Part shown: positions 5,116-40,789 of the stretch, piece after piece
How the letters are laid out: the number at the start of each line of letters is the position of its first letter
Position numbering within the stretch: position 1 is the first letter of the stretch
Source: an uncultured Pelagibacteraceae bacterium
GTDB lineage: Bacteria > Pseudomonadota > Alphaproteobacteria > Pelagibacterales > Pelagibacteraceae
Direction of reading: 5' to 3'
Length of the DNA: 64,000 bases
Assembly: GCA_902560855.1 (NCBI GenBank)
Contig: CACENJ010000003.1
Coordinates: forward strand, 16,180-80,179
Notes under the pieces: model-generated
What the model saw: only the letters and a program-made list of their open reading frames with translations
What the model was told of the DNA's origin: nothing
The model's database searches: none
Program-made: the position numbers and the translations under genes

Positions 5116-5949
5116 ATGGAAATTAAATTATTATCAGGAGCCTTAGGTGCTGAAATTAAAGGTGTTGATCTTAAAGATACCTCTGATGAAAATTTTAAAA
5201 AAATTAACGATCTACTTTTAGAGCATAAAGTTATTTTTTTTAGAGGTCAAACAATTACTTCCGAAGAACAAATAGCTCTAGCAGAAAAATTTGGTCCCTT
5301 AGAAACACATGCTTACGTTAAAGGTTTAAAAAAGTATCCTGAAATAGTTAGAATAATAAAAGCTGAAGATGAACAAAACCAATGGGGAGAAAATTGGCAT
5401 AGCGATGTTAGTTATAATGTCAAACCTACAAAAGCTGTAATATTAAAATCATTAAAAATACCTCCGGTAGGTGGAGATACATGTTTTGCAAATATGGAAC
5501 TTGCTTGGGAAACTTTAGATGAAGAAATAAAAAATAAAATTAGAGATAAAAAAGCAGTGCATAGTTCTTTAGGTGCAGAATTTTTTTTAGATAGTTATAA
5601 AAAAATGGAAGGCAATAAAAAAAAAAATTATAATGAATATTCAAATGAACATCCAATAGTAAGAACACACCCGGAAACAGGTAAAAAAATACTATTTGTA
5701 AATTGGACATATACCAAAAAAATTATTGGTTTAGATAAAGAAGAAAGCGATAAAGTTTTAAATAAAATTTTTGAACATCAAGCTAGGCTAGAATTAACTT
5801 GTAGATTCACTTGGACAGAAAATACAGTATGTATATGGGATAACAGAAGTGTTATTCATTTTGCAATTGCTGATTTTTACCCTGGAAGAGGACTTGGGTA
5901 TGAAAGAGTTATGGATCGAATTGCAATAGAAGGGGATGCGCCAGTTTAA
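5116..5949 (+). CDS. TauD/TfdA-family Fe(II)/2-oxoglutarate dioxygenase
   Basis: LGAEIKGVDL, WHSDVSY (HxD), GGDTCFANM, HPIVRTHPETG, WDNRSVIH. Confidence 0.9.
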   Translation: MEIKLLSGALGAEIKGVDLKDTSDENFKKINDLLLEHKVIFFRGQTITSEEQIALAEKFGPLETHAYVKGLKKYPEIVRIIKAEDEQNQWGENWHSDVSYNVKPTKAVILKSLKIPPVGGDTCFANMELAWETLDEEIKNKIRDKKAVHSSLGAEFFLDSYKKMEGNKKKNYNEYSNEHPIVRTHPETGKKILFVNWTYTKKIIGLDKEESDKVLNKIFEHQARLELTCRFTWTENTVCIWDNRSVIHFAIADFYPGRGLGYERVMDRIAIEGDAPV

Positions 5950-13154: not shown

Positions 13155-14432
13155 ATGAAAAAAATTTTTATAATTGTAGCTTGCTTATTTGCCTTTGTTT
13201 TTGGGGCTATTTATGGATACGAAAATCCTGAAATATTAGATTTAATAAAAATAAAATTTAAAAAACAGTCTTCTTCAAAAATAGACAAAGAAAAAGGTCC
13301 TTTACAAAAAGTTAATGCTAATTCTTTTAATGTTGAATTTTCAAAAATAATTTCACTAACCGAAAGAACAGCTTTTATTGTTTATAAAGAAAAAGATAAT
13401 GAAAGTCCTTTTACAATATACACGCAAGATGGATTTGTATTAAGAGATTTTAAACAAAAAAAATTGAATTTACCAAATTTTTTAGCTGTAAAAAAAAAAG
13501 GTGGTTTAAAAACGGTTTTTTTTCATGATAATAATGCTTTTGCATTAATTTCATCTAAAAAAAATAACTGCTATTATGCTTCAATAGTTTTTTTAAAAGA
13601 AGAAAAAGAAATATTTGAAACAGAATGTTTACCAAGCCAACAAGTCGATTACAACGGTTTGGGTAGTAGCAGTGTTCACTATAAAGATAGTATTTTATTA
13701 AGCATAGGTGCACCCGAATCTATTGATCATCAAATAGCTAGTTTGGCGCAAGACAAAAATTCAATGTATGGAAAAATAATCGAAATTAAAAAAAATGAAT
13801 TAAATAAAATTATTACAAATAAGATAGATTATATTAGTCCAAAAATATTTAGTTTGGGTCACAGAAATCCTCAAGGCTTAACCAAAATTAATAAAACTTT
13901 ATTTAGTGTTGAACATGGTCCACGTGGAGGTGATGAATTAAATAAAATTCAAAAAAATAAAAACTATGGTTGGCCAATTGTTTCTTACGGGGTTAAATAT
14001 ATTTTGCTTGATGATAGTGAAAGAATTTTTAGAGTAAATCATGAAAAAAATGGATTTGAAGAACCAATTTTTGCACTTGTTCCTTCGGTAGGCATTTCTT
14101 CATTAAATAAATGCCCTAATAAGTTAAGTAATTATTATGACAAACCATGTCTAATGGCTCTATCTTTGTATGGCAATGGTTTAAGACCTGGAAGATCAAT
14201 TATAATTTTTTTATTAAATGAAGATATGGATAGAATTCATTCTACTGAAAAAATTTATTTAAGAAATGACTTAAAACTTAGACATTTTGTTACCAACTCA
14301 AAAAATGAACTACATGAAGATATAAATGGCGATATATATATATCAGCTGACAAAAAAGGAATTTACAAAATAAGTTTCGTTGATTTTATTAATGCTGAAG
14401 GTAGCAATAAACTAAAAAAATCTTTCAATTAA
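13155..14432 (+). CDS. PQQ-dependent sugar dehydrogenase (GSDH/soluble aldose dehydrogenase-like), membrane-anchored or exported
   Basis: GHRNPQGL, EHGPRGGDELN, NYGWP. N-terminal hydrophobic segment. Confidence 0.78.
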   Translation: MKKIFIIVACLFAFVFGAIYGYENPEILDLIKIKFKKQSSSKIDKEKGPLQKVNANSFNVEFSKIISLTERTAFIVYKEKDNESPFTIYTQDGFVLRDFKQKKLNLPNFLAVKKKGGLKTVFFHDNNAFALISSKKNNCYYASIVFLKEEKEIFETECLPSQQVDYNGLGSSSVHYKDSILLSIGAPESIDHQIASLAQDKNSMYGKIIEIKKNELNKIITNKIDYISPKIFSLGHRNPQGLTKINKTLFSVEHGPRGGDELNKIQKNKNYGWPIVSYGVKYILLDDSERIFRVNHEKNGFEEPIFALVPSVGISSLNKCPNKLSNYYDKPCLMALSLYGNGLRPGRSIIIFLLNEDMDRIHSTEKIYLRNDLKLRHFVTNSKNELHEDINGDIYISADKKGIYKISFVDFINAEGSNKLKKSFN

Positions 14433-14489
14433 AAAGGATTCTATAACTTGTGTAATAATAATAATTAATTACATATCTCAACAATTTTA

Positions 14490-14498
14490 TGCTATAAT
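14490..14498 (+). promoter_or_regulatory. extended -10 sigma70 promoter element (TGnTATAAT)
   Basis: TGCTATAAT about 100 bp upstream of the LLM operon start; predicts a TSS near 14505. Confidence 0.6.
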
Positions 14499-14502
14499 TT
14501 AA

Positions 14503-14590
14503 TTAAAGCGATACATAACTCGTCGTTTAAGATTTCAAAAACTAAACGAAAGTGGGATCGGTCGTCTTTAAATTGATTTTTAAAGGAGGC
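14503..14590 (+). ncRNA. structured 5' leader, candidate translational riboswitch
   Basis: P1 14503-14512/14561-14571 and P2 TCGTTTA/TAAACGA (14523-29/14543-49). An alternative hairpin 14561-72/14579-90 sequesters the GGAGG RBS. Confidence 0.5.
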
Positions 14591-14594
14591 TTAA

Positions 14595-15764
14595 ATGAAA
14601 TTTGGTTATTTTTGCAATACTACTAACTGGAATCACAAACCTTATTATCAGCTACTAGACGAAACAAAAGATATCACAGAATATTGTGATAAAAATGATT
14701 GGAATTCAATTTGGTTTACAGAACATCATTTTAATCACGAAGGAATGGAGTCTTGCACCAATCCTCTAATGTTAGGGGCTGATGCAGCTGCTAGAACTAA
14801 AAATATTAGAATTGGACAAGCTGCTAATATTATAACTTTTCATAACCCCATTAGATTAGCTGAGGATATTGCTACACTAGATCAATTGTCGAAAGGTAGA
14901 GTTGAAGTTGGAGTTGGCAGAGGAATTTATGGTAGAGAAGCAATTCACATGAATGTTGAAGCAGATTTAAAAGATCAGGCAAAAAATTTTAGACTATTTG
15001 AAGAAACTTTAACAATATTAAAAAAAGCATGGACTGAAAAATTCTTTGCACATAAAGGAGAATTTTACACTTACCCTGCCACGGATTTTGTTTGGCAACA
15101 TGATATGAGTCCACCAAACGAAGATTTCATGGATTTAAAAAACAAAACACTAAAAAAAATAAGTGTTGTGCCTCAACCTTATCAAAAACCTCATCCACCA
15201 ATTCATCAAGTTGTAGATGGTATAAGATCAATAGAATGGGCTGCAAAAAATGGCATAAATATCATTATGTGGATTCCAACTGTTAAAGCTTTAAAAATTA
15301 AATTTGAAGCATATAAAAATGCAAAATCAGAAGCTGAAAAAAGAAATGTTTCTCTTGGAGAAGGAGTTACATTGGTTAGAGATATGTTTGTTGCTGATAG
15401 CATGGAAGAAGCAAAAGAGAAAGCGGGCGAACATATGGTAAACTATATGAAATGGGTTTGTCATTGGAGAGGCCTTGGAAATCATATGGACCCTGGTGAG
15501 GAGTTGCCAGAAACTAAAGGGAAATTAGATTTATTAAGTTATGACTTTCTTCATAAACGTAACATGCTATTTGGAACTCCAGAATATGTTATTGATAAAA
15601 TTAAAGAATTAAAATCAGAGCTTAACTTAAAAAATTTACAAGTTTGGTCAAATTTTCCAGGAGTTAAACATGAGGATTGTATGAAAAGTATAAAAATGTT
15701 TACTGAAAAAGTTATGCCTCATTTTAAAGATGATATAGATACAAAAATCAAAAAAGTTTCGTGA
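14595..15764 (+). CDS. luciferase-like (LLM) flavin-dependent monooxygenase
   Basis: WFTEHHF, NPIRLAEDIATLDQLSKGRVEVGVGRG, PQPYQKPHPPI, FGTPEYV. Confidence 0.92.
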   Translation: MKFGYFCNTTNWNHKPYYQLLDETKDITEYCDKNDWNSIWFTEHHFNHEGMESCTNPLMLGADAAARTKNIRIGQAANIITFHNPIRLAEDIATLDQLSKGRVEVGVGRGIYGREAIHMNVEADLKDQAKNFRLFEETLTILKKAWTEKFFAHKGEFYTYPATDFVWQHDMSPPNEDFMDLKNKTLKKISVVPQPYQKPHPPIHQVVDGIRSIEWAAKNGINIIMWIPTVKALKIKFEAYKNAKSEAEKRNVSLGEGVTLVRDMFVADSMEEAKEKAGEHMVNYMKWVCHWRGLGNHMDPGEELPETKGKLDLLSYDFLHKRNMLFGTPEYVIDKIKELKSELNLKNLQVWSNFPGVKHEDCMKSIKMFTEKVMPHFKDDIDTKIKKVS

Positions 15765-17476
15765 TTAAATCTAAAAAAAGAAATGCCACAAAAAACTTAA
15801 GTGGAGGTCAAGCTGTTGTTAAATGTTTAATAAAAGAAAAAGTCAAACATGTATTTGGTTTGATTGGCTCTTCCACAATGGAAGTTTTTGATGCTCTCTA
15901 TCATGAAAAAAAAATAAAATTTATCGGTGTGAGAGATGAAAGAACTGGTACTCATATGGCTGACGGATATGCAAGAGCATCAAATAAGCCCGGTGTAATT
16001 CTTGCAGGACAAAATGGACCTGGCGCTACAAACCTTATAACAGGTATAGCGCAAGCTTCAGCTGCCTTTTCTCCTGTAGTTTCTATTGCAGGTTCATATT
16101 CTACAAAAGAAAAAGTTCAAGATGCCTTTCAAGGACTTGATCAACAATCTTTATTTAAACCAATAACCAAAAAAACCTGGACAATTAAAGACCAAAAAAA
16201 AATCCCTAAAATATTTAGTAATGCTTTTAATTTAGCTATGTCTCCAAGAAGAGGTCCAGTTCAAATAAATCTACCTAGAGATATTTTGCCAAAAAAAGCT
16301 AAATTAAACATTGATCAAACTAAAAAATCATATGAATCCAAAAGTTCTCTAAAAGCAAAAAATAAAGATATTAAAAAAGCTATAAAAATAATTTTAAAAT
16401 CAAATAAACCTGTAATAGTTGCAGGAGGAGGAATTAAATATACTGCTAAGTATAAAGAAGTAATAAAATTAGCAGAACTATTAAATATTCCCATCGTTAC
16501 TGCTGCTGGTCATGGTGATGCTATACCATTTAACTATAAATTAAATGCTGGACAGATGGGTCCTAGAGGAAACCCAGTCGCTTCAAAGTTAGTTAAAAAA
16601 GCTGACGTAATAATTGCTTTAGGCACTCGCCTTGGCTTTAATTCAACTTTTTACTCTTATGAAAACATAAATAAGAAGGCAAAAATAATCCAAGTAGAAC
16701 TAGAAAAGAAAATGCTAGGAAGGTATTTTCCAATAACTTTGGGTATTTGTGCCGACGCTGCAACTACAACTAACCAAATATACCTAGAAATAAAAAAACA
16801 AAAATCTAAGTTAAATATAAAAAACTGGACTAATGACTATTTAAACGAAAGAAAAATTTATTTAAATAATAGAGAAAGCAGCAATAATTTAAAAAAATTT
16901 CCAATACAGCCGAAAGATTTATTTAAAGAACTAAGAAAAGTTCTACCTAAAAATTCTGCTATTACTCTAGATGCTGGAACTCTTTGTCTTCAAGCAACAG
17001 ATGCTTTAAAATATTTTAATCCTCCTTCTTTGTTCACTCCTTTGGACTTTGGCCTAGTGGGGTTTTCTTTTGCTTGCGGGTTAGGAGTTAAAGTTGCTTG
17101 TCCTGACAAAACAGTTGTTAGTTTAATGGGAGACGGAGGTTTTGGAATGACAATTTCAGAATTAAGCACAGCTGTACAATACAAAATTAACACAATTACT
17201 ATTGTTATGAACAATAACAGTTGGGGAGCTGAAAAAGCTTATCAAAAAGATTTTTTTGGAAAAAGATATATAGGAGCTGATATAAGAAGCCCAGAATTTC
17301 ATAAGGTTGCTCAACTTTATGGTGCAAAAGGTTTTAATGTAAATAAGGTTTTAGAAATTAATCATGCGTTGAAAGCTGCTTTAAAATGTAATAAGCCAGC
17401 AGTAATTAATGTTAACGTAGATCCTAAAGCATTATATAGTTTTAGAAGAGATAGTTTTAAACATAGGACAAAATAA
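15761..17476 (+). CDS. ThDP-dependent enzyme, sulfoacetaldehyde acetyltransferase (Xsc)-like
   Basis: GDGGFGM...NN ThDP motif; GQNGPG and WGAEK motifs recall Xsc rather than IlvB. GTG start overlaps the LLM stop. Confidence 0.7.
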   Translation: MIKSKKRNATKNLSGGQAVVKCLIKEKVKHVFGLIGSSTMEVFDALYHEKKIKFIGVRDERTGTHMADGYARASNKPGVILAGQNGPGATNLITGIAQASAAFSPVVSIAGSYSTKEKVQDAFQGLDQQSLFKPITKKTWTIKDQKKIPKIFSNAFNLAMSPRRGPVQINLPRDILPKKAKLNIDQTKKSYESKSSLKAKNKDIKKAIKIILKSNKPVIVAGGGIKYTAKYKEVIKLAELLNIPIVTAAGHGDAIPFNYKLNAGQMGPRGNPVASKLVKKADVIIALGTRLGFNSTFYSYENINKKAKIIQVELEKKMLGRYFPITLGICADAATTTNQIYLEIKKQKSKLNIKNWTNDYLNERKIYLNNRESSNNLKKFPIQPKDLFKELRKVLPKNSAITLDAGTLCLQATDALKYFNPPSLFTPLDFGLVGFSFACGLGVKVACPDKTVVSLMGDGGFGMTISELSTAVQYKINTITIVMNNNSWGAEKAYQKDFFGKRYIGADIRSPEFHKVAQLYGAKGFNVNKVLEINHALKAALKCNKPAVINVNVDPKALYSFRRDSFKHRTK

Positions 17477-18061
17477 ATGAGTTTAAAAGTAAGAAAATTC
17501 GCAAAGTTTGTAGATAAAACTTTTATTGAAGGTGGAAAAGAAGCTAAGGAACCAGTTGTTATGGTTTCGGTTGCAGCAGTATTTATAAACCCTTGGCATG
17601 GAAAAGGGTTTGTTGAAGATTTGAAACCCGTAATTTTAGATCTAGCACCAAAACTAGGTGATATTTTGGTACCGGAATTAATTAAAGAGATAGGTTCTCC
17701 GGATAAAATTTTAGCTTATGGAAAAGCAGGTATCGTTGGACTTTCTGGAGAAATAGAACATGCTTCCGCTTTTATCCATACTTTAAGATTTGGAAACAAA
17801 TTTAGAGAAGCTGTCGGTGGCACCTCTTATTTAAGTTTTACTAATACAAGGAGTCCTGCTGGCAGTAAAATATCTATTCCAATGATGCATAAAAAAGATT
17901 CTGGCCTAAGACCTTATTATTTAACTCATGAATTTACAATTCACGATGCACCCTTTGATAATGAGATTGTTATAGCTATTGGTGGAGCATCTAGCGCAAG
18001 AGCTCACGCAAGAACTGGCGACAGATATCAAGACATGAAAGAAATGGGATTAAAATCCTAA
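17477..18061 (+). CDS. DUF1185 / 'amino acid synthesis' (AA_synth) family protein
   Basis: NPWHGKGFVEDL, YGKAGIVGLSGEIEHASAFIHTLRFGN, DAPFDNEIVIAIG, HARTGDRY. Confidence 0.85.
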   Translation: MSLKVRKFAKFVDKTFIEGGKEAKEPVVMVSVAAVFINPWHGKGFVEDLKPVILDLAPKLGDILVPELIKEIGSPDKILAYGKAGIVGLSGEIEHASAFIHTLRFGNKFREAVGGTSYLSFTNTRSPAGSKISIPMMHKKDSGLRPYYLTHEFTIHDAPFDNEIVIAIGGASSARAHARTGDRYQDMKEMGLKS

Positions 18062-18070
18062 ATAAAATTT

Positions 18071-18868
18071 ATGCCTAATACCTCTGAGAGATATAAAACT
18101 GATTACTTGTTTAAAAAAAAAAATGATAAAGCTCCTATAGTATTTATTCATGGTGTAGGCTTAACAAAAGAAATTTGGAACTCACAAATAAAATTTTTCA
18201 AGGATCATAATATACTTACATATGATTTGATTGGTCATGGCAAAACTCCATTGGAGAAAACACAACTTAATTTTGAAGATTTTACAAAACAATTGCTTAA
18301 TTTGATTAACGAATTAGAAATAAATAAAATTCATTTAGTTGGTTTTTCTTTAGGCTCGCTTATAGCAAGAAATTTTGCAGCAGCACATCAAGACAAATTA
18401 AGTTCTCTGGTTCTTTATGCCTCAATCTATAAAAGATCTGAAGAACAAAAAAGAGTTGTACAAAATAGATTTGAATTAATGAAGACAAGCAAAAAAGCCT
18501 CACAAGATAGAGCTGTGAGAAGATGGTTTTCGGATACATTTCTTAGAGAAAATAAAGAAGTTTATGACAAAATATTTTCAATGCTTAGCGAAAATAATCA
18601 CACTAATTTACTAAAAGCATATAAACTTTTCGTTAATTATAAAGATGACGAACAAATTCTCAATAATATTAATACAAATACACTTGTAACTACTGGACAA
18701 TATGACGTAGGATCAACTACCGAAATGGCAAAAAATTTATCTGAAAAAATTAAAAAATCAAAATATATAGAGATAAAAAATGGTAAACACCTTTGCAATA
18801 TAGAATGTTCTAAGGACTTCAACAAAATGATAGAATTATTTGTAGATCAAAATTATGACGAAGCTTAA
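18071..18868 (+). CDS. alpha/beta hydrolase (TgnD/PcaD-like)
   Basis: FIHGVG, YDLIGHG, GFSLG nucleophile, catalytic D (QYDVGS) and H (KHL). Confidence 0.85.
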   Translation: MPNTSERYKTDYLFKKKNDKAPIVFIHGVGLTKEIWNSQIKFFKDHNILTYDLIGHGKTPLEKTQLNFEDFTKQLLNLINELEINKIHLVGFSLGSLIARNFAAAHQDKLSSLVLYASIYKRSEEQKRVVQNRFELMKTSKKASQDRAVRRWFSDTFLRENKEVYDKIFSMLSENNHTNLLKAYKLFVNYKDDEQILNNINTNTLVTTGQYDVGSTTEMAKNLSEKIKKSKYIEIKNGKHLCNIECSKDFNKMIELFVDQNYDEA

Positions 18869-20336
18869 AGAATATAAAATGTTTATTGATGGTTCATGGG
18901 TAGATTCTGAAAGTAAAAAAACTTTCGAAACTCTAAATCCTGAAAACAATGAACCATGGGCAATAGTCCCTGAAGCAAGCGCAAAAGATATTGATAAAGC
19001 AGTCAGGGCTGCACAAAAATCATTTGATGGGGAATGGCCAAAATTATTTCCTAAAGAAAGAGCCAAATATTTAAAAGAAATAGCTAATCAATTAAGAGAA
19101 AATGCCGAGCTACTTGGAAAAATTGAAACAATTGATACTGGAAAATTATTTAAAGAAACAAAAACTCAAGCGAACTATATAGCCGAATATTATGAATATT
19201 ACGCAGGTCTTGCTGACAAAGTTGAAGGAACGGTATTGCCTATAGATAAAGCTAATATGCAAGTTATAACTACTAGAGTTCCTATTGGAGTAGTGGCTGC
19301 AATAATTCCATGGAACTCTCAAATGTTATTAACTGCTGTAAAATTAGCTCCTGCGCTTGCAATGGGTAATACAATTGTAATTAAATCTTCTGAATTAGCA
19401 CCAGCAACATTATTTGAATTTGGAAAATTAATTGAAAAAACTGGTATACCAAAAGGTGTAGTAAATATAGTTTCTGGATTTGGTGAACCATGTGGAAAAG
19501 CTTTAACATCTCACAATTTAGTTGAACGAGTTGCTTTTACAGGTGGTCCTGAAACTGCAAGACATATAATAAGAAATTCTGCTGACAATTTATCTCAGGT
19601 AAGTCTAGAACTTGGAGGAAAAAGTCCTGTAGCTGTTTTTGATGACGCTGATCAAGAAAATGCTTTGAATGGTATTACCGCTGGAATCTTTGGTGCAAGT
19701 GGCCAAAGTTGCATAGCTGGTTCAAGATTATATATACAAAATAATATTTATGAAAATTTTTTAGAAAAAATTGTAAATAGAGCTAATAAAATTAAGTTAG
19801 GACCTCCAATGGAACCCGATACACAAATGGGACCATTAAGCAGTTTAAAGCAACTGGAAATAATAGAAAAAAATATAAAATTGACTTTAGACCAGGGAGG
19901 AAAGCTTAAGTGTGGAGGAAAAAGACATAGTTTATCTAATAAAGGTTATTATTTTCCACCCACAATAATTGAATGTGAAAACCATAATTTGCCTACAGCT
20001 GAAAATGAATTATTCGGTCCAGTTTTATCAGTTATGAAATTTAATACCGAAGATGAAGTAATAGATAAAATGAATGATAATCAATACGGTTTGTCCTCTG
20101 GAGTTTATACAAAAGATATAAACAGAGGATTGAGAGTCTCTAATGCTATTCGTGCTGGGATTACCTTCGTAAATACTTACAGATTAATCTCACCTTCGGC
20201 GCCTTTTGGTGGAATGAAGGACAGTGGTTATGGAAAAGAGGCAGGAATAGAATCTATTAAAGATTATACAAGAATTAAAACAACTTGGTTTAATACATCC
20301 GACAAACCAATGGATGACCCATTTACAATGGGATGA
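18855..20336 (+). CDS. NAD-dependent aldehyde dehydrogenase (TgnC-like subgroup)
   Basis: IIPWN, FTGG, LELGGKSP, GQSCIAGSR, ELFGPV; C-terminal DKPMDDPFTM. Confidence 0.92.
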   Translation: MTKLKEYKMFIDGSWVDSESKKTFETLNPENNEPWAIVPEASAKDIDKAVRAAQKSFDGEWPKLFPKERAKYLKEIANQLRENAELLGKIETIDTGKLFKETKTQANYIAEYYEYYAGLADKVEGTVLPIDKANMQVITTRVPIGVVAAIIPWNSQMLLTAVKLAPALAMGNTIVIKSSELAPATLFEFGKLIEKTGIPKGVVNIVSGFGEPCGKALTSHNLVERVAFTGGPETARHIIRNSADNLSQVSLELGGKSPVAVFDDADQENALNGITAGIFGASGQSCIAGSRLYIQNNIYENFLEKIVNRANKIKLGPPMEPDTQMGPLSSLKQLEIIEKNIKLTLDQGGKLKCGGKRHSLSNKGYYFPPTIIECENHNLPTAENELFGPVLSVMKFNTEDEVIDKMNDNQYGLSSGVYTKDINRGLRVSNAIRAGITFVNTYRLISPSAPFGGMKDSGYGKEAGIESIKDYTRIKTTWFNTSDKPMDDPFTMG

Positions 20337-20340
20337 GTAA

Positions 20341-21198
20341 TTGACTAAAAATCATACATTATTAATTTTATTTGTAATGTTTTTGCTGGGAAGTGCTTAT
20401 CCCACAGCAAAATTAGGTATTAATGCATCTATGCCTCCAATTTTGTTTGGAGCCTTAAGAATGGGAATTGTATTTATTTGCTTAGCGCCTTTTTGCAAAA
20501 TTAAAATTCTTAAAAAAAAATATTTATTACCTCTGATTGCCTTTTCATTTTCAATGGGAGTGGGGGTAAATCTTTTTTTATATTTATCGGTAGAAGCATC
20601 AAGCATAATATCGCCTCTTGTTATAGGTGCTCAATTATCAATTCCAATTGCAATTATTTTAAGCTCAATATTTATTGGGGAATCAATGAACTATAAAAAA
20701 TGGATTTTAATAATTACATCTTTTTTAGGAATTGTACTAATTGGATTTGATCCAAAAATTGCTGATGAAATTTTAGGATTTTTGTTGATATGTGGTATGG
20801 CTTTTTTTTATGCAATGTCACAGGTCTTTTCAAGATATCTTAAAGAATTAGATGTTAAATTTACAAGTGCTTCTATGGGTTTTATTGCTTGCATTACTTT
20901 ATTAATTGCTTCTATTGTTTTTGAAGGAAATACAATTTCTCATTTAAAAAATTTAGAACTTGAAGCTTGGTTAATGGTATTGCATGCCGGAATTCTTTGT
21001 TCTTTATTTGGACACATGACAATGTTTTATCTGTACAAATTTTATCCAGTGGGACAAGTACTTCCTTTTTATGCTTTATTTCCTGTTTTTGGAATGTTGC
21101 TAAGTTTTTTCATATTTGGTGAAATTCCAACTTTAATCATGCTAATTGGTGGAATTATAGTAATAACTTCAGTCTTTTTACTACAAAAAGTAAGATAA
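20341..21198 (+). CDS. DMT/EamA family transporter
   Basis: About 10 TM, EamA repeats; TTG start. Confidence 0.82.
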   Translation: MTKNHTLLILFVMFLLGSAYPTAKLGINASMPPILFGALRMGIVFICLAPFCKIKILKKKYLLPLIAFSFSMGVGVNLFLYLSVEASSIISPLVIGAQLSIPIAIILSSIFIGESMNYKKWILIITSFLGIVLIGFDPKIADEILGFLLICGMAFFYAMSQVFSRYLKELDVKFTSASMGFIACITLLIASIVFEGNTISHLKNLELEAWLMVLHAGILCSLFGHMTMFYLYKFYPVGQVLPFYALFPVFGMLLSFFIFGEIPTLIMLIGGIIVITSVFLLQKVR

Positions 21199-23110: not shown

Positions 23111-24276
23111 TTTTTGCTTAATATGTCTGCTCTAAAGCTCGAATAAATTATTAATACTAAAAATGGAATACATAGTAGGTTCATAGTTGTCCAGCTAGTT
23201 AAACTTAGCATTATACCTGCTGATAAACTTGCTAATGCCATTGTAGTAAATACAATCAGATCATTAATCCCTTGTGCTTTAAATTTTTCTTCTTCCTTAT
23301 AAGTTAAAACAACTAAACTAGTTCCTGAAATAAATAAAAAATTCCACCCTAATCCTAAAAATATTAATGCTACCATATAATTTAAATATGTTTGTTCAAA
23401 TAAACTTAGGATTACTGTTACAATGTAAAACAAAACTCCTATATAGATTATATTGCTATGCCCAAACTTTTTAATTAAAGTTCCTGTAATTAATGATGGT
23501 AGAAACATAGCAGCTACGTGAATTTGTAGAACAAAGCCTGTTTTTTCTAAGCTCATTTTGTCCATAACATGCATGCTTAAGGGTGTAGCTGTCATCAAAT
23601 ACGACATTACAGCATAAGCAAATGCAGCGGCGGTTACTGCTTGTAAAAATCTTGGTTGAAAAATTATTTCAGATAATCTGCGTCCATTGTATTGATTATT
23701 AAAATCTATTTTTGGATTTTCATTATTATTATAAAAAAATAAAAATATTGCTGGCATAAAAGTAAATGCAGCAAGTAAAAGATAAGAGCCAACATATAAA
23801 TGGTCAGAGACAAGATTTTTTGTATAGTTTGACGACGTTATTCCTAAAAAAGCTGCAACGATACCTGATAGCATTAAAATAGAAATAGCTTTTGGTGCTT
23901 TTTCTTTTTCTACACTTTCAGCTGCTGCAAAACGATATTGATGAGTAAATGCCATACCCATTCCAAGAATTAAGTTTGAAATACAAAATAAAATAAAATT
24001 TTGTTGATAAATAGCAAAAGTAGCTACTAAAGCAGCCGCTGAGCTTCCTAAGGCTGCAAAAATAAAACCTAGCCTTCGGCCTATTTTGCTCATTATTTTT
24101 GCTGCTAAAATAGTACAAATTGCAGTGCCAACAACTGACAAAGCTACAGGTAAAGTTGATAAGGATTTTATAGAAGTAATTTGTGACCCAATAATTGCGC
24201 CTAAAAAAACTGTAATAGTTGCAGCTGTAAACCCAAAAACATAACTGATGGCTAATAAATTAACATTTTTATTCAT
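23107..24276 (-). CDS. MFS transporter
   Basis: 12 TM; KIGRRLGF; QYRFAAAE; MTATPLSM; GWNFLFISG. Start placed at ATG 24276. Confidence 0.88.
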   Translation of the reverse strand: MNKNVNLLAISYVFGFTAATITVFLGAIIGSQITSIKSLSTLPVALSVVGTAICTILAAKIMSKIGRRLGFIFAALGSSAAALVATFAIYQQNFILFCISNLILGMGMAFTHQYRFAAAESVEKEKAPKAISILMLSGIVAAFLGITSSNYTKNLVSDHLYVGSYLLLAAFTFMPAIFLFFYNNNENPKIDFNNQYNGRRLSEIIFQPRFLQAVTAAAFAYAVMSYLMTATPLSMHVMDKMSLEKTGFVLQIHVAAMFLPSLITGTLIKKFGHSNIIYIGVLFYIVTVILSLFEQTYLNYMVALIFLGLGWNFLFISGTSLVVLTYKEEEKFKAQGINDLIVFTTMALASLSAGIMLSLTSWTTMNLLCIPFLVLIIYSSFRADILSKK

Positions 24277-25042
24277 GCATAAACTCAATTAAACTTTCTG
24301 CTACTTCGTCAGGTGCCTCAATTAAAAAAGAATGTTTGTATTTTGGTAAAATTACTAATTTAGAATCTTTTATTTCGTTAGCCATAATTTCATTGTGCTT
24401 TGGGCTACAACCTCCATCATGTTCTCCTGTTAAAAGCAAACATGGTTTAGAAATATTCTTTAACCATGGAAGCATTTCCGTTTTTGCATATATTTTAAAA
24501 ACATTAAGAAAGACCTCAGAATCTGTATCAACAACTTGTTTTAATCTTCTCTCAACTAAATCAGGCTTGTTTTTTATAAATTCATCAGTAAACCACCTGT
24601 TGGTTAAAGTTTGCAATGTTTTTTCTATTCCATTTTTTTCCATTTCATGAATTACATTCCATACTTTTTTAGAATCCTCTTCAGATCTCCCGGCTACAGT
24701 AGATAATAAACCAACTGAAATTGTATTTTCAGGAAATTTTAAAGCATACGCTGGCGCAATCATGCCTCCTAAAGAATGTCCTGCAAAATGTGCCTTTTCA
24801 AATTTTGTTTTTTCTCTAATTCTTTCAAGATCAATAACCAATTCATCTAGATTAAAATTTTTATGAGTTACTGGAGACTTTCCATGACCACGAAGATCAT
24901 AAGTTACTACAGTAAAATGTTTTGATAATTTAGTTAGCATAAATCTCCAAGCATCTTCTGCAGCACCTATTCCATGTGTTAAAAATAAAGGTGGGCCTGA
25001 TCCATTTATTGAATAGTGACAATCTACTGCAGAAATTGTCAT
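24269..25042 (-). CDS. alpha/beta hydrolase (PcaD-like)
   Basis: HGIG, YDLRGHG, GHSLGG, GEHD, KHSFL. Confidence 0.88.
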   Translation of the reverse strand: MTISAVDCHYSINGSGPPLFLTHGIGAAEDAWRFMLTKLSKHFTVVTYDLRGHGKSPVTHKNFNLDELVIDLERIREKTKFEKAHFAGHSLGGMIAPAYALKFPENTISVGLLSTVAGRSEEDSKKVWNVIHEMEKNGIEKTLQTLTNRWFTDEFIKNKPDLVERRLKQVVDTDSEVFLNVFKIYAKTEMLPWLKNISKPCLLLTGEHDGGCSPKHNEIMANEIKDSKLVILPKYKHSFLIEAPDEVAESLIEFMHE

Positions 25043-25045
25043 TGC

Positions 25046-26080
25046 TTATGCTACTTTAGTATTAAATTTTTTAAAATAAGGCATTACTTCTTCACTTATA
25101 CGATGCATTGACTCAATCATTTCACTTTGACTCTGTCCAAAGCCAGCACTTATTATAATTTCGTCAACGCCTGTTTCTGCATAAACACTAAGTTTGTCGA
25201 TCATCTCGTTTACAGGACAAATCAATAAATTTTCCGTTAATTCTTCTAAAGTTTGTTTTCTAAGTAAAGGTTCTATTTTTCCATTTTTAACTTTGCCTGG
25301 ACCAGTAAACACATTATCAAAGCGTTTATAATATTCATAAGCTAATTTATTTTTTTCTTTAGCATCATTTTCATTCGCTGCAGCAAAAGCCATTCTTTGC
25401 ATAGAAATTTTTAACAGTTTACTCTTTTCACCAAGTTTTAAACTACCTTCTTTAAAAGCATTTACTCTTTGTTTTAATAATTCTTTAGAACCAGATAATA
25501 CAGTTGATTGAACATGAAAACCTCTTGAAGCTGCGTCTTTAATGCTATTAAGATCCATTGCAGCAATCATAATTTGAATCGGATTACTTATAGGTCTTGG
25601 CATAATTGTTATTGGATCAAAGTTGTAATATTTTCCTTTATATGAAACTTCTTCTTCATTTAACAACTTCTGAAGTACATCTAAAGATTCTATAAATTTT
25701 TCTTTGGACTTTTCAATTGGTGTACCTAATCTATTCATTTCCCATGCAAAAGCACCACGGCCTACTCCAAGAATTAATCTGCCCTCAGTTAAGATATCTG
25801 CTGTTGCAACTTCACCAGCATAAGTTCTCATATCGTGCAAAGGAAGAACAACAACGCTTGTCGAAATATTAATTTTTTTTGTTAACGCTGCTATTTTGAC
25901 TGCCATCTGCAAAGGTGAAGGCATCATTAAAAGATTTACTAAATGATGTTCGGGTATTGAAACAGTTTTATAACCAAGTTTTTCAGCTAAAATAGCCTGG
26001 TCGATCATATTTTTAAAATGAGTTTTTGATCCTATAGACAGATCTGGCATATAGCTCGTAAGGAAATGATTAAAGTCCAT
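25046..26080 (-). CDS. luciferase-like (LLM) monooxygenase, TgnB-like
   Basis: IPEHH, AGEVATADILTEGRLILGVGRGAFAWE, EEVMPYF. Confidence 0.88.
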   Translation of the reverse strand: MDFNHFLTSYMPDLSIGSKTHFKNMIDQAILAEKLGYKTVSIPEHHLVNLLMMPSPLQMAVKIAALTKKINISTSVVVLPLHDMRTYAGEVATADILTEGRLILGVGRGAFAWEMNRLGTPIEKSKEKFIESLDVLQKLLNEEEVSYKGKYYNFDPITIMPRPISNPIQIMIAAMDLNSIKDAASRGFHVQSTVLSGSKELLKQRVNAFKEGSLKLGEKSKLLKISMQRMAFAAANENDAKEKNKLAYEYYKRFDNVFTGPGKVKNGKIEPLLRKQTLEELTENLLICPVNEMIDKLSVYAETGVDEIIISAGFGQSQSEMIESMHRISEEVMPYFKKFNTKVA

Positions 26081-40099: not shown

Positions 40100-40705
40100 C
40101 TAAGTTATTGCAATTATAATTGCAATAATTAATAAAACACACGCTGAAATTGTATTTATAACTTTTGGATTTGTTTTTAACCACACTATTAATTTATTTG
40201 CTAGAATTGCGTATCCAATTAAAGATAGAAAATCTAAAACCATATATGTTGTTATTAAAATAATAAATTGAGAAACATAATTTGAACTAAAATCAATAAA
40301 TTGTGGAAAAATTAGTGGAAAAAACATCCAAGCTTTTGGACTAGTTCCTGCAACTAAAAAACCGTCTTTAAAGAAGGAAAAAATATTTTTTTCAGAATAG
40401 TTTTTAGAATTTATTTCTTGGGGTTTGATTTTGTAAATATCATAAGAAAGATAAATTAAATAAAGTATACCGATCCATTTAAAAAAGTTTAAAAAATTTG
40501 GATTATCATAAAAAAAAGATCCTATAACAAATATAACTAAAGTTCCTTGCACAAAATTTGCAGTAACATCGCCTAAGGCTGTCCATATACACTTGGCAAC
40601 TCCGTAATTCATAGAATATGAAATGATTACAATCCTGGGTGTTCCTGGAGTAATAAAAAGGAATAAAATTATTTGAAGAAAAAGAAAATAATTAAGGGGA
40701 AACAT
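40100..40705 (-). CDS. rhtB: LysE/RhtB family translocator
   Basis: LFITPG, KWIGILYLIYL, GFLVAGTSPKAWMFF..FPQF. Confidence 0.85.
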   Translation of the reverse strand: MFPLNYFLFLQIILFLFITPGTPRIVIISYSMNYGVAKCIWTALGDVTANFVQGTLVIFVIGSFFYDNPNFLNFFKWIGILYLIYLSYDIYKIKPQEINSKNYSEKNIFSFFKDGFLVAGTSPKAWMFFPLIFPQFIDFSSNYVSQFIILITTYMVLDFLSLIGYAILANKLIVWLKTNPKVINTISACVLLIIAIIIAIT

Positions 40706-40713
40706 TTTATTTG

Positions 40714-40760
40714 GATAGCCCTAAAAAACCGGGAGCTAAAAATGGCTAGATAGGACTATC
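40714..40760 (-). ncRNA. bulged hairpin immediately upstream of rhtB (probably the SAR11 'rhtB' candidate RNA motif)
   Basis: Minus strand GAUAGUCCUA...AGCC..GGUU...UAGGGCUAUC: 10-bp outer stem plus 4-bp inner stem, ending 8 nt before the AUG. Identity with the published Pelagibacter rhtB motif is from recall. Confidence 0.55.
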
Positions 40761-40789
40761 TATATGTAATATATCAAAGCCAAAACAAA

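Follow-up and report, generated by a model that had tools for sequence, protein, structure and literature searches.

The leader of a five-gene operon headed by a luciferase-like monooxygenase (LLM) gene in an uncultured member of the Pelagibacteraceae contains a conserved RNA motif that probably represents an undescribed class of cis-acting small-molecule riboswitch turning translation on. It is a new and well-supported candidate, for which binding of an effector is predicted. The stretch of DNA that was analysed (hereafter the window) comprises 64,000 nucleotides, in which the motif, of 62-65 positions, occupies 14502-14570. Its conservation, its structure, the alternative pairing of one of its strands, its exclusive association with the operon and the lack of a regulator gene nearby all emerge from the computations described here. 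Members of SAR11 are the ocean's most abundant heterotrophs, have very few transcription factors and rely on riboswitches.

Anatomy and promoter of the leader

An initial annotation of this DNA had placed an extended -10 box, two helices (P1 and the P2 hairpin) and a GGAGG ribosome-binding site (RBS) upstream of the LLM gene, and on direct reading all of their coordinates are exact (Table 1). Two folds are to be distinguished: fold A, in which P1 closes P2 to form the aptamer, and fold B, in which the 3' strand of P1 pairs instead with the Shine-Dalgarno (SD) region. The LLM start codon is an ATG at 14595. The description of the leader as long and comparatively G/C-containing fits a spacer of 162 nt, the fourth longest in the window, with a GC content of 34.8% in the aptamer vs 17.1% in the remainder of the same spacer. 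Covariance model R1 matches the aptamer with 78.3 bits (E = 1e-16), its sole match in the window's own genome, and model R2 with 74.8 bits.

The sequence of the extended -10 promoter is present, and boxes of this type are enriched across orthologous leaders: most of the 134 examined carry a -10-like hexamer 12-22 nt 5' of ACAUAAC, and TGnTAnnnT occurs in 38 of them, vs 13 +/- 3.4 after shuffling. The site, a predicted promoter, is not reported by a two-hexamer promoter scan, because it has no -35 box.

Table 1. Features of the LLM leader and of the operon downstream (window coordinates; operon annotation by Pfam and NCBIfam)
Feature	Position	Strand	Remarks
Extended -10 box TGCTATAAT	14490-14498	+	Read directly; predicted transcription start ~14504-14506, the 5' end of P1
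Whole aptamer	14502-14570	+	Span matched by covariance models R1 and R2
P1 5' strand, UUAAAG-CGAU (UUAAAGCGAU)	14503-14512	+	Pairs with 14561-14571
J1/2 junction ACAUAA	14513-14518	+	Invariant
P2 5' strand	14519-14529	+	CUCG, P2a (RNAalifold); ACU (14518-20) paired instead in the initial annotation; UCGUUUA (14523-29), P2b
P2 terminal loop/tip	14530-14542	+	Variable
P2 3' strand	14543-14556	+	UAAACGA (14543-49), P2b; invariant AAG bulge, 14550-52; UGGG, P2a
J2/1 junction AUCG	14557-14560	+	AUC invariant; last base a purine
P1 3' strand GUCG-u-CUUUAA	14561-14571	+	Common to folds A and B; partner 14503-12 (A) or 14579-91 (B)
SD-sequestering hairpin (fold B)	14560-14591	+	U14565-A14572 with U14579-G14586; G14560-C14563 with G14588-U14591
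Shine-Dalgarno GGAGG	14585-14589	+	
Operon	14595-20336	+	
Luciferase-like monooxygenase (LLM)	14595-15764	+	
Xsc/acetolactate-synthase (ALS)-like ThDP enzyme	15761-17476	+	
PF06684 AA_synth/DUF1185	17477-18061	+	
Alpha/beta hydrolase	18071-18868	+	
Aldehyde dehydrogenase	18855-20336	+	
EamA transporter gene	20341-21198	+	Follows the five genes

Conservation and distribution

The regions upstream of 50 LLM orthologues (70-100% identity) were collected from the family, represented by 201 sampled genomes. Since these leaders were gathered through the protein, the RNA sequence could not bias their selection. Conservation in orthologous leaders had been named at the outset as a check on the proposal, and all 50 have the motif, 11-40 nt 5' of the LLM start codon. 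The consensus reads GCGAUACAUAACUCRUCG - variable hairpin - CGAAAGYGGGAUCRGUCGUCUU, followed by an AU-rich hairpin and the SD. The core elements ACAUAACUC, AAG and GGGAUC are unchanged in every one of the 50 leaders, and likewise in a second family in which the LLM is 57-58% identical and the motif was located by covariance model; unlike this core, the flanks and the tip of P2 diverge freely. Six genomes of the same genus that have no LLM gene were all found to be free of the motif.

Covariance model R2 matched 75 of 151 genomes of the order, a tally that takes in one unpublished genome (G668), whose sequence does not enter the present analysis; family f1 accounts for 57 matches among 90 genomes and family f209 for 17 among 60. 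A search of 150 other families of the class with R1 gave no match, and none of the LLM homologues of at most 45% identity in other families of the Alphaproteobacteria is preceded by the motif, so that distant comparators are lacking. When 185,579 species genomes were scanned for the pattern, at least 120 loci came up, the cultured isolates HIMB1611, HIMB1746 and HIMB1748 being among the carriers. Among the matches listed, nearly all belong to the Pelagibacteraceae and about 110 sit 11-40 nt 5' of an LLM start; those from elsewhere are one HIMB59 metagenome-assembled genome (MAG), one 'MarineAlpha5' MAG and one MAG labelled as Gammaproteobacteria. The last (L076; NZHP01000025.1, 'Gammaproteobacteria bacterium MED641') carries the motif together with an LLM 85% identical to that of the window; this contig probably stems from SAR11 and ended up in a gammaproteobacterial MAG by mis-binning. 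Two loci of the genome scan (L062 and L067) were discarded as chance matches, as were both matches of a scan of viral contigs, which are GC-rich and have no flanking helices.

Secondary structure of the aptamer

The initial annotation had suggested looking for covariation in P1 and P2 and for conserved junction bases. Over 92 distinct sequences both helices covary and the junction bases are constant. The alignment was fitted to the model, and the strong conservation of the motif leaves it with few independent compensatory events. Of its cells, 94.2% are paired; both sides differ in 10 of the 16 pairs, and all five structure measures exceed those of 500 out of 500 shuffles. The covariation score is 0.138, vs at most 0.041 when the partners are slid by 1-3 columns, upon which pairing drops to 32-48%. 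An offset-based, alignment-free count of pairs showed a modest excess over shuffles, and in a first, narrow alignment of 22 sequences covariation was not above shuffles.

The inner four pairs of P1 are formed in 98.9% of cases over the 92 distinct sequences, and three of them vary on both sides. The inner helix CGAU/GUCG is replaced in compensated form by GCGU/GCGC (L094) and AGAC/GUUU (L109), and in the outer part of P1 a G-C pair becomes A-U in L066. In P2b, UCGU/ACGA gives way to UCAU/AUGA, CC/GG or CUGU/ACGG; changes from G-C to A-U and from U-A to C-G are seen in this helix, and the innermost pair of P2a is G-U, A-U, G-C or A.C. The tips of P2 come in 86 distinct versions, with the whole P2 segment spanning 21-50 nt, and nonetheless form hairpins of a mean energy z-score of -2.46 vs shuffles. 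Many of the pairs are G.U, among them the innermost pair of P1, which is U.G in 97 of 130 sequences; since G.U pairs form on the sense strand alone, the structure is one of RNA and not a DNA palindrome. An alternative helix, of CGAU with the neighbouring AUCG, has less support than CGAU/GUCG and was rejected.

The consensus is an unbranched hairpin with 0 branch points. P1 and P2b of fold A were borne out, but its inner helix ACU/AGU has an equally good and mutually exclusive alternative, CUCG/UGGG with an AAG bulge (energies of -14.2 and -14.3, respectively, and equal counts). The alignment cannot choose between them, because both lie in invariant columns; RNAalifold and P1-constrained folding both give the CUCG/UGGG helix. 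The invariant bases of the inner helix probably form a tertiary core rather than a plain helix.

Sequestration of the Shine-Dalgarno sequence

The minimum free energy (MFE) structure of the window leader is fold B, at -19.1 kcal/mol, in which CUUUAAA pairs with UUUAAAG and P1 is absent; the aptamer fold with P1 enforced has an energy of -14.3 kcal/mol. For four of the five bases of GGAGG, the probability of being unpaired is 0-0.06 in the free ensemble vs 0.93-0.98 with the aptamer fold enforced, in agreement with the proposal that the RBS is buried in fold B and free in fold A. Taken by itself the fold of the window leader is unremarkable (z = -1.78; 12 of 200 shuffles fold as well), and the case therefore rests on comparison.

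The claim that two mutually exclusive folds share one strand extends well beyond the window. Of 135 distinct leaders, 132 have a 3' segment whose MFE structure pairs the SD with the 14 bases that come next 3' of GGGAUC, the 3' strand of P1, and the hairpins that do so vary in sequence (CUUUAAA/UUUAAAG, CUUAA/UUAAG, CUUAGAU/AUUUAAG, CUUUUUAUU/AAUAAAAGG and others). Without constraints, the MFE folds of 96 leaders show an SD that is at least half paired in 93 cases; enforcing just the four inner pairs of P1 lowers this to 28, at a mean cost of 3.0 kcal/mol (range 0-6.1). P1 is present in four of the 96 unconstrained folds, and in no case is the MFE structure the aptamer fold. In this AT-rich genome pairing of the SD is no rarity: of 19 other genes that have an SD-like motif, 9 show it, in weaker hairpins. 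What carries the argument is the strand common to both folds, and its conservation, rather than sequestration alone. The HIMB59 and MarineAlpha5 representatives do not pair the SD with P1, and in the HIMB59 MAG (L088) a hairpin holds the SD in its loop.

Because the SD is hidden in the MFE fold, the default state would be OFF, and stabilisation of P1 would turn translation ON. This predicted direction suits a catabolic operon.

Regulators and known RNA families

A Pfam scan of ~55 ORFs of the window (most of those of 100 aa or more) revealed no domain of a DNA-binding regulator, in line with the remark in the initial annotation that no transcription factor gene is to be seen in the window, and no RNA-binding or regulator gene was found to travel with the operon. 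When the 4227 models of Rfam 15 were searched at gathering and permissive thresholds, the region 14300-14750 gave noise only at E <= 10 (K10_TLS, snR87 and U2; 11-15 bits), and eight divergent representatives of the motif gave nothing relevant at E <= 1. The cmscan search thus matched no described family, and the novelty of the candidate stands. Full-text searches of the literature found no paper on the motif and none linking a riboswitch candidate to an LLM, and strings of the core sequence retrieved unrelated primers only. The sole gathering-level Rfam match in the window is a full-length rhtB sRNA motif (RF01814, 77 bits) at 40696-40778 on the minus strand, in a 636-nt spacer directly 5' of a LysE/RhtB-type exporter gene (40100-40705). 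It is unrelated to the LLM leader, and its placement is the one known from SAR11.

The leader has the generic features of a riboswitch, namely an aptamer in the 5' leader with covarying helices and conserved unpaired bases, and a mutually exclusive expression platform. The textbook case of a translational ON switch is the add adenine riboswitch of Vibrio vulnificus, a member of the purine class (RF00167), in which the aptamer helices meet at a three-way junction and the loops of P2 and P3 make contact. In both add and the LLM leader, the 3' strand of P1 pairs either with its 5' partner (an arrangement that is ligand-stabilised in add) or with the SD, and the position of the LLM leader may be likened to that of add, which precedes a gene consuming or handling its ligand. 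Unlike the purine three-way junction, the LLM motif is an unbranched hairpin with internal loops; with 0 branch points in the consensus and no cmscan match to RF00167 at E <= 10, the purine class was rejected.

In overall design the motif resembles THF-II (the folE motif), a small one-hairpin aptamer of P1 and P2 with conserved unpaired bases, which occurs in one bacterial order in front of a single gene and controls translation via the 3' shoulder of P1 (Chen et al. 2019, PMC6800512). The LLM leader is likewise a small one-hairpin aptamer, restricted to an order, linked to a single gene and arranged so that the 3' side of P1 would control translation. In THF-II, however, the RBS lies inside P1 and the ligand turns a biosynthetic gene OFF, whereas in the LLM leader the RBS lies outside P1 and pairs with its 3' strand in the alternative fold, so that ON would be expected, in front of a catabolic operon. 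Identity with THF-II was dismissed, as there is no cmscan match, the consensus differs and the downstream gene is an LLM and not folE. The motifs described in 'Ca. Pelagibacter ubique' comprise SAM-V, glycine, TPP, rpsB, rpsL, ffh, rhtB, pntA, bablM and SAR11_0636 (Meyer et al. 2009, PMC2704228). They come from the same group of organisms and rest on evidence of the same kind as the LLM leader, namely spacers that are conserved and enriched in GC, in a genome where regulators are few; none is tied to a monooxygenase or LLM operon, and luciferase and monooxygenase go unmentioned in that work.

The controlled operon

The genes of the operon are tightly packed, and all five recur 3' of the motif in the second family (L094). 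The ThDP gene is missing from some Pelagibacter genomes (L156, L181), in which the PF06684 gene directly follows the LLM. The HIMB59 version (L088) consists of the LLM and one 264-aa gene only. NCBIfam holds no equivalog for the operon, and PDB sequence searches with the LLM and the ThDP enzyme retrieved distant relatives only, which give no hint of the substrate. Several genomes have, divergently 5' of the motif, a gene of the Amdase/maleate-isomerase-like type (PF17645; L072, 2674-3417 (-); L156, 5609-6355 (+)), and in L072 it is adjoined by a creatinase/prolidase-like M24 gene; the window has a 2OG oxygenase and a PQQ-type dehydrogenase in its place. The divergent gene, being maleate-isomerase-like and of the Amdase family, gives a weak hint of pyridine-ring catabolism. 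The opposite strand of the window encodes another LLM, of 344 aa, and another alpha/beta hydrolase (24269-26080 (-)), beside MFS and LysE transporter genes. In front of this pair there was neither a covariance-model match nor anything else suggestive of the leader motif.

A possible clue to the ligand was sought in the homarine (hom) operon, which is described from 120 Pelagibacter genomes and comprises homA (~700 nt, FAD-binding), homB (~1700 nt), the peptidase-like homC and the aldehyde dehydrogenase-like homD, with a homR regulator in isolates (PMC13236597). The window operon has an aldehyde dehydrogenase, an S33-type hydrolase and a gene of 1716 nt; it starts with an LLM, and its 585-nt gene belongs to PF06684 and does not encode an FAD protein.

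Integrative elements at the motif

The motif is a hot spot for the integration of genomic islands. Some genomes carry two to four complete copies of it, with the islands lying in between. In nBUS_29 (L180, 1336-11021, in LLM-oriented reverse-complement coordinates), an upstream copy is immediately followed by the gene of a 535-aa tyrosine integrase and then by genes for a Gp2.5-like single-stranded DNA-binding protein (SSB), a DUF5906/VapE-like primase and a RusA resolvase; a second, complete aptamer precedes the LLM 9.6 kb further on. HIMB1746 (L182, L086 and L113) has a 19-kb island with a homologous integrase (34-37% identity) and primase (39%). Both of these islands have the integrase gene immediately 3' of the upstream copy, accompanied by SSB, primase and RusA genes, and neither contains structural phage genes. 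Uisw_104 (L181, 995-11895) packs four copies into 11 kb, with TPR, radical-SAM and methyltransferase genes in between.

The copies agree in the core CGAAAGYGGGAUCRRUCG and differ in the tip of P2 and the 5' strand of P1, and the upstream copy diverges in sequence immediately 3' of GUCG. This pattern of a shared core, a differing 5' part and divergence after GUCG suggests that the elements bring their own 5' part of the aptamer and rebuild a complete leader in front of the LLM. Islands and prophages that target tRNA or tmRNA genes insert in a short, conserved gene of structured RNA and restore it through a part that they carry. The islands at the LLM leader likewise combine a tyrosine integrase, a conserved RNA target, a partial copy and tandem arrays. 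They differ from tRNA/tmRNA islands in that the target is an mRNA leader and that the element would supply the 5' part instead of the usual 3' part. To our knowledge, it is unusual for an mRNA leader to serve as a target of integration as tRNA genes do.

Copies cut off from the LLM by islands have mutated in the core (GGCAUC in L156, at 5485-5542 (-); ACACAAC and GGGAUU in L193), whereas copies adjoining the LLM keep it intact. The detached copies of L156 and L193 look like decaying relics of earlier insertions, and their decay speaks for selection on the motif's cis-regulatory role.

Discussion

The combined results suggest a model of how the leader may operate. Transcription probably starts just 3' of the extended -10 box, and the first ~70 bases would fold as one long hairpin made up of P1, the invariant internal loop ACAUAA/AUCR, a short inner helix of unchanging bases with an AAG bulge, and P2b, which ends in the variable tip. 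When no ligand is bound, a stabler fold would prevail in which GUCGUCUUUAA, the P1 3' strand, masks the RBS by pairing with the region of AAAGGAGG. A small molecule binding to the conserved internal loops would stabilise P1 and withdraw the shared strand, freeing the SD so that the operon can be translated. The ligand is presumably the substrate of the operon or an early intermediate. We infer that it is a small molecule and not a protein that binds, and that the switch is ON and not OFF.

The effector could in principle be of another kind. Recognition of the conserved loops by a protein or a trans-acting sRNA, shifting the same balance between P1 and the SD sequestor, would account equally well for the conservation, the covariation and the alternative SD pairing, and the rpsB, rpsL and ffh leaders of SAR11 likely bind proteins (Meyer et al. 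2009, PMC2704228). We nevertheless regard a protein or sRNA effector as rather unlikely here, given that no RNA-binding or regulator gene accompanies the operon, that the motif serves this one catabolic operon only and is present as a single copy in the window's genome, and that ~25 unpaired bases stay constant while the protein drops to 57% identity, as is typical of ligand pockets. A structured leader that responds to no ligand at all, whether it damps translation constitutively, acts as an RNA thermometer or governs mRNA stability, with the upstream hairpin merely tuning the SD hairpin, would explain why the latter is conserved and stable on its own (-5 to -11 kcal/mol) and why the aptamer fold with its P1 so rarely appears in unconstrained folding. 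Neither damper nor thermometer, however, needs the invariant single-stranded ACAUAA, AAG and GGGAUCR, or a second helix 40-70 nt upstream, and we consider this explanation improbable.

A function at the level of DNA seems to us very improbable. The motif might be an operator palindrome, TCGTAAATTACGA, for a dimeric transcription factor, and variants with short tips (L014, L019) do contain a perfect palindrome, UCGUAAAUUACGA; yet the half-sites lie 4 to >30 nt apart and differ in sequence, the G.U pairs of the helices would be A.C on the opposite strand, and no regulator gene is nearby. Nor does conservation merely as an attachment site fit well, even though integrase-bearing islands do insert at the motif: it would bring the host no benefit, integrases usually choose sites that are already conserved, and copies that no longer precede the LLM decay.

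A small-molecule riboswitch therefore remains our preferred reading, and a possible, more tentative extension of it gives the motif a dual role, as a new riboswitch class for a marine dissolved metabolite and as the attachment site of satellite-like integrative elements. The sensed metabolite would then be the substrate of the LLM/ThDP/DUF1185/hydrolase/aldehyde dehydrogenase pathway, and may be an N-methylated pyridine or some other N-heterocyclic osmolyte. The elements, with their integrase, Gp2.5-like SSB, DUF5906 primase and RusA, would replace the 5' half of the aptamer with a functional one of their own, and the operon would thereby escape silencing on insertion.

An undescribed aptamer class that is found in about every second genome sampled from the order would mean a new pair of ligand and RNA. 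Used as bait for its ligand, the RNA may offer a handle on what the orphan five-gene pathway consumes, and thereby on a component of the marine dissolved organic matter used by SAR11. A leader that is targeted and rebuilt by mobile elements would moreover be an independent sign of the importance of this RNA to the cell.
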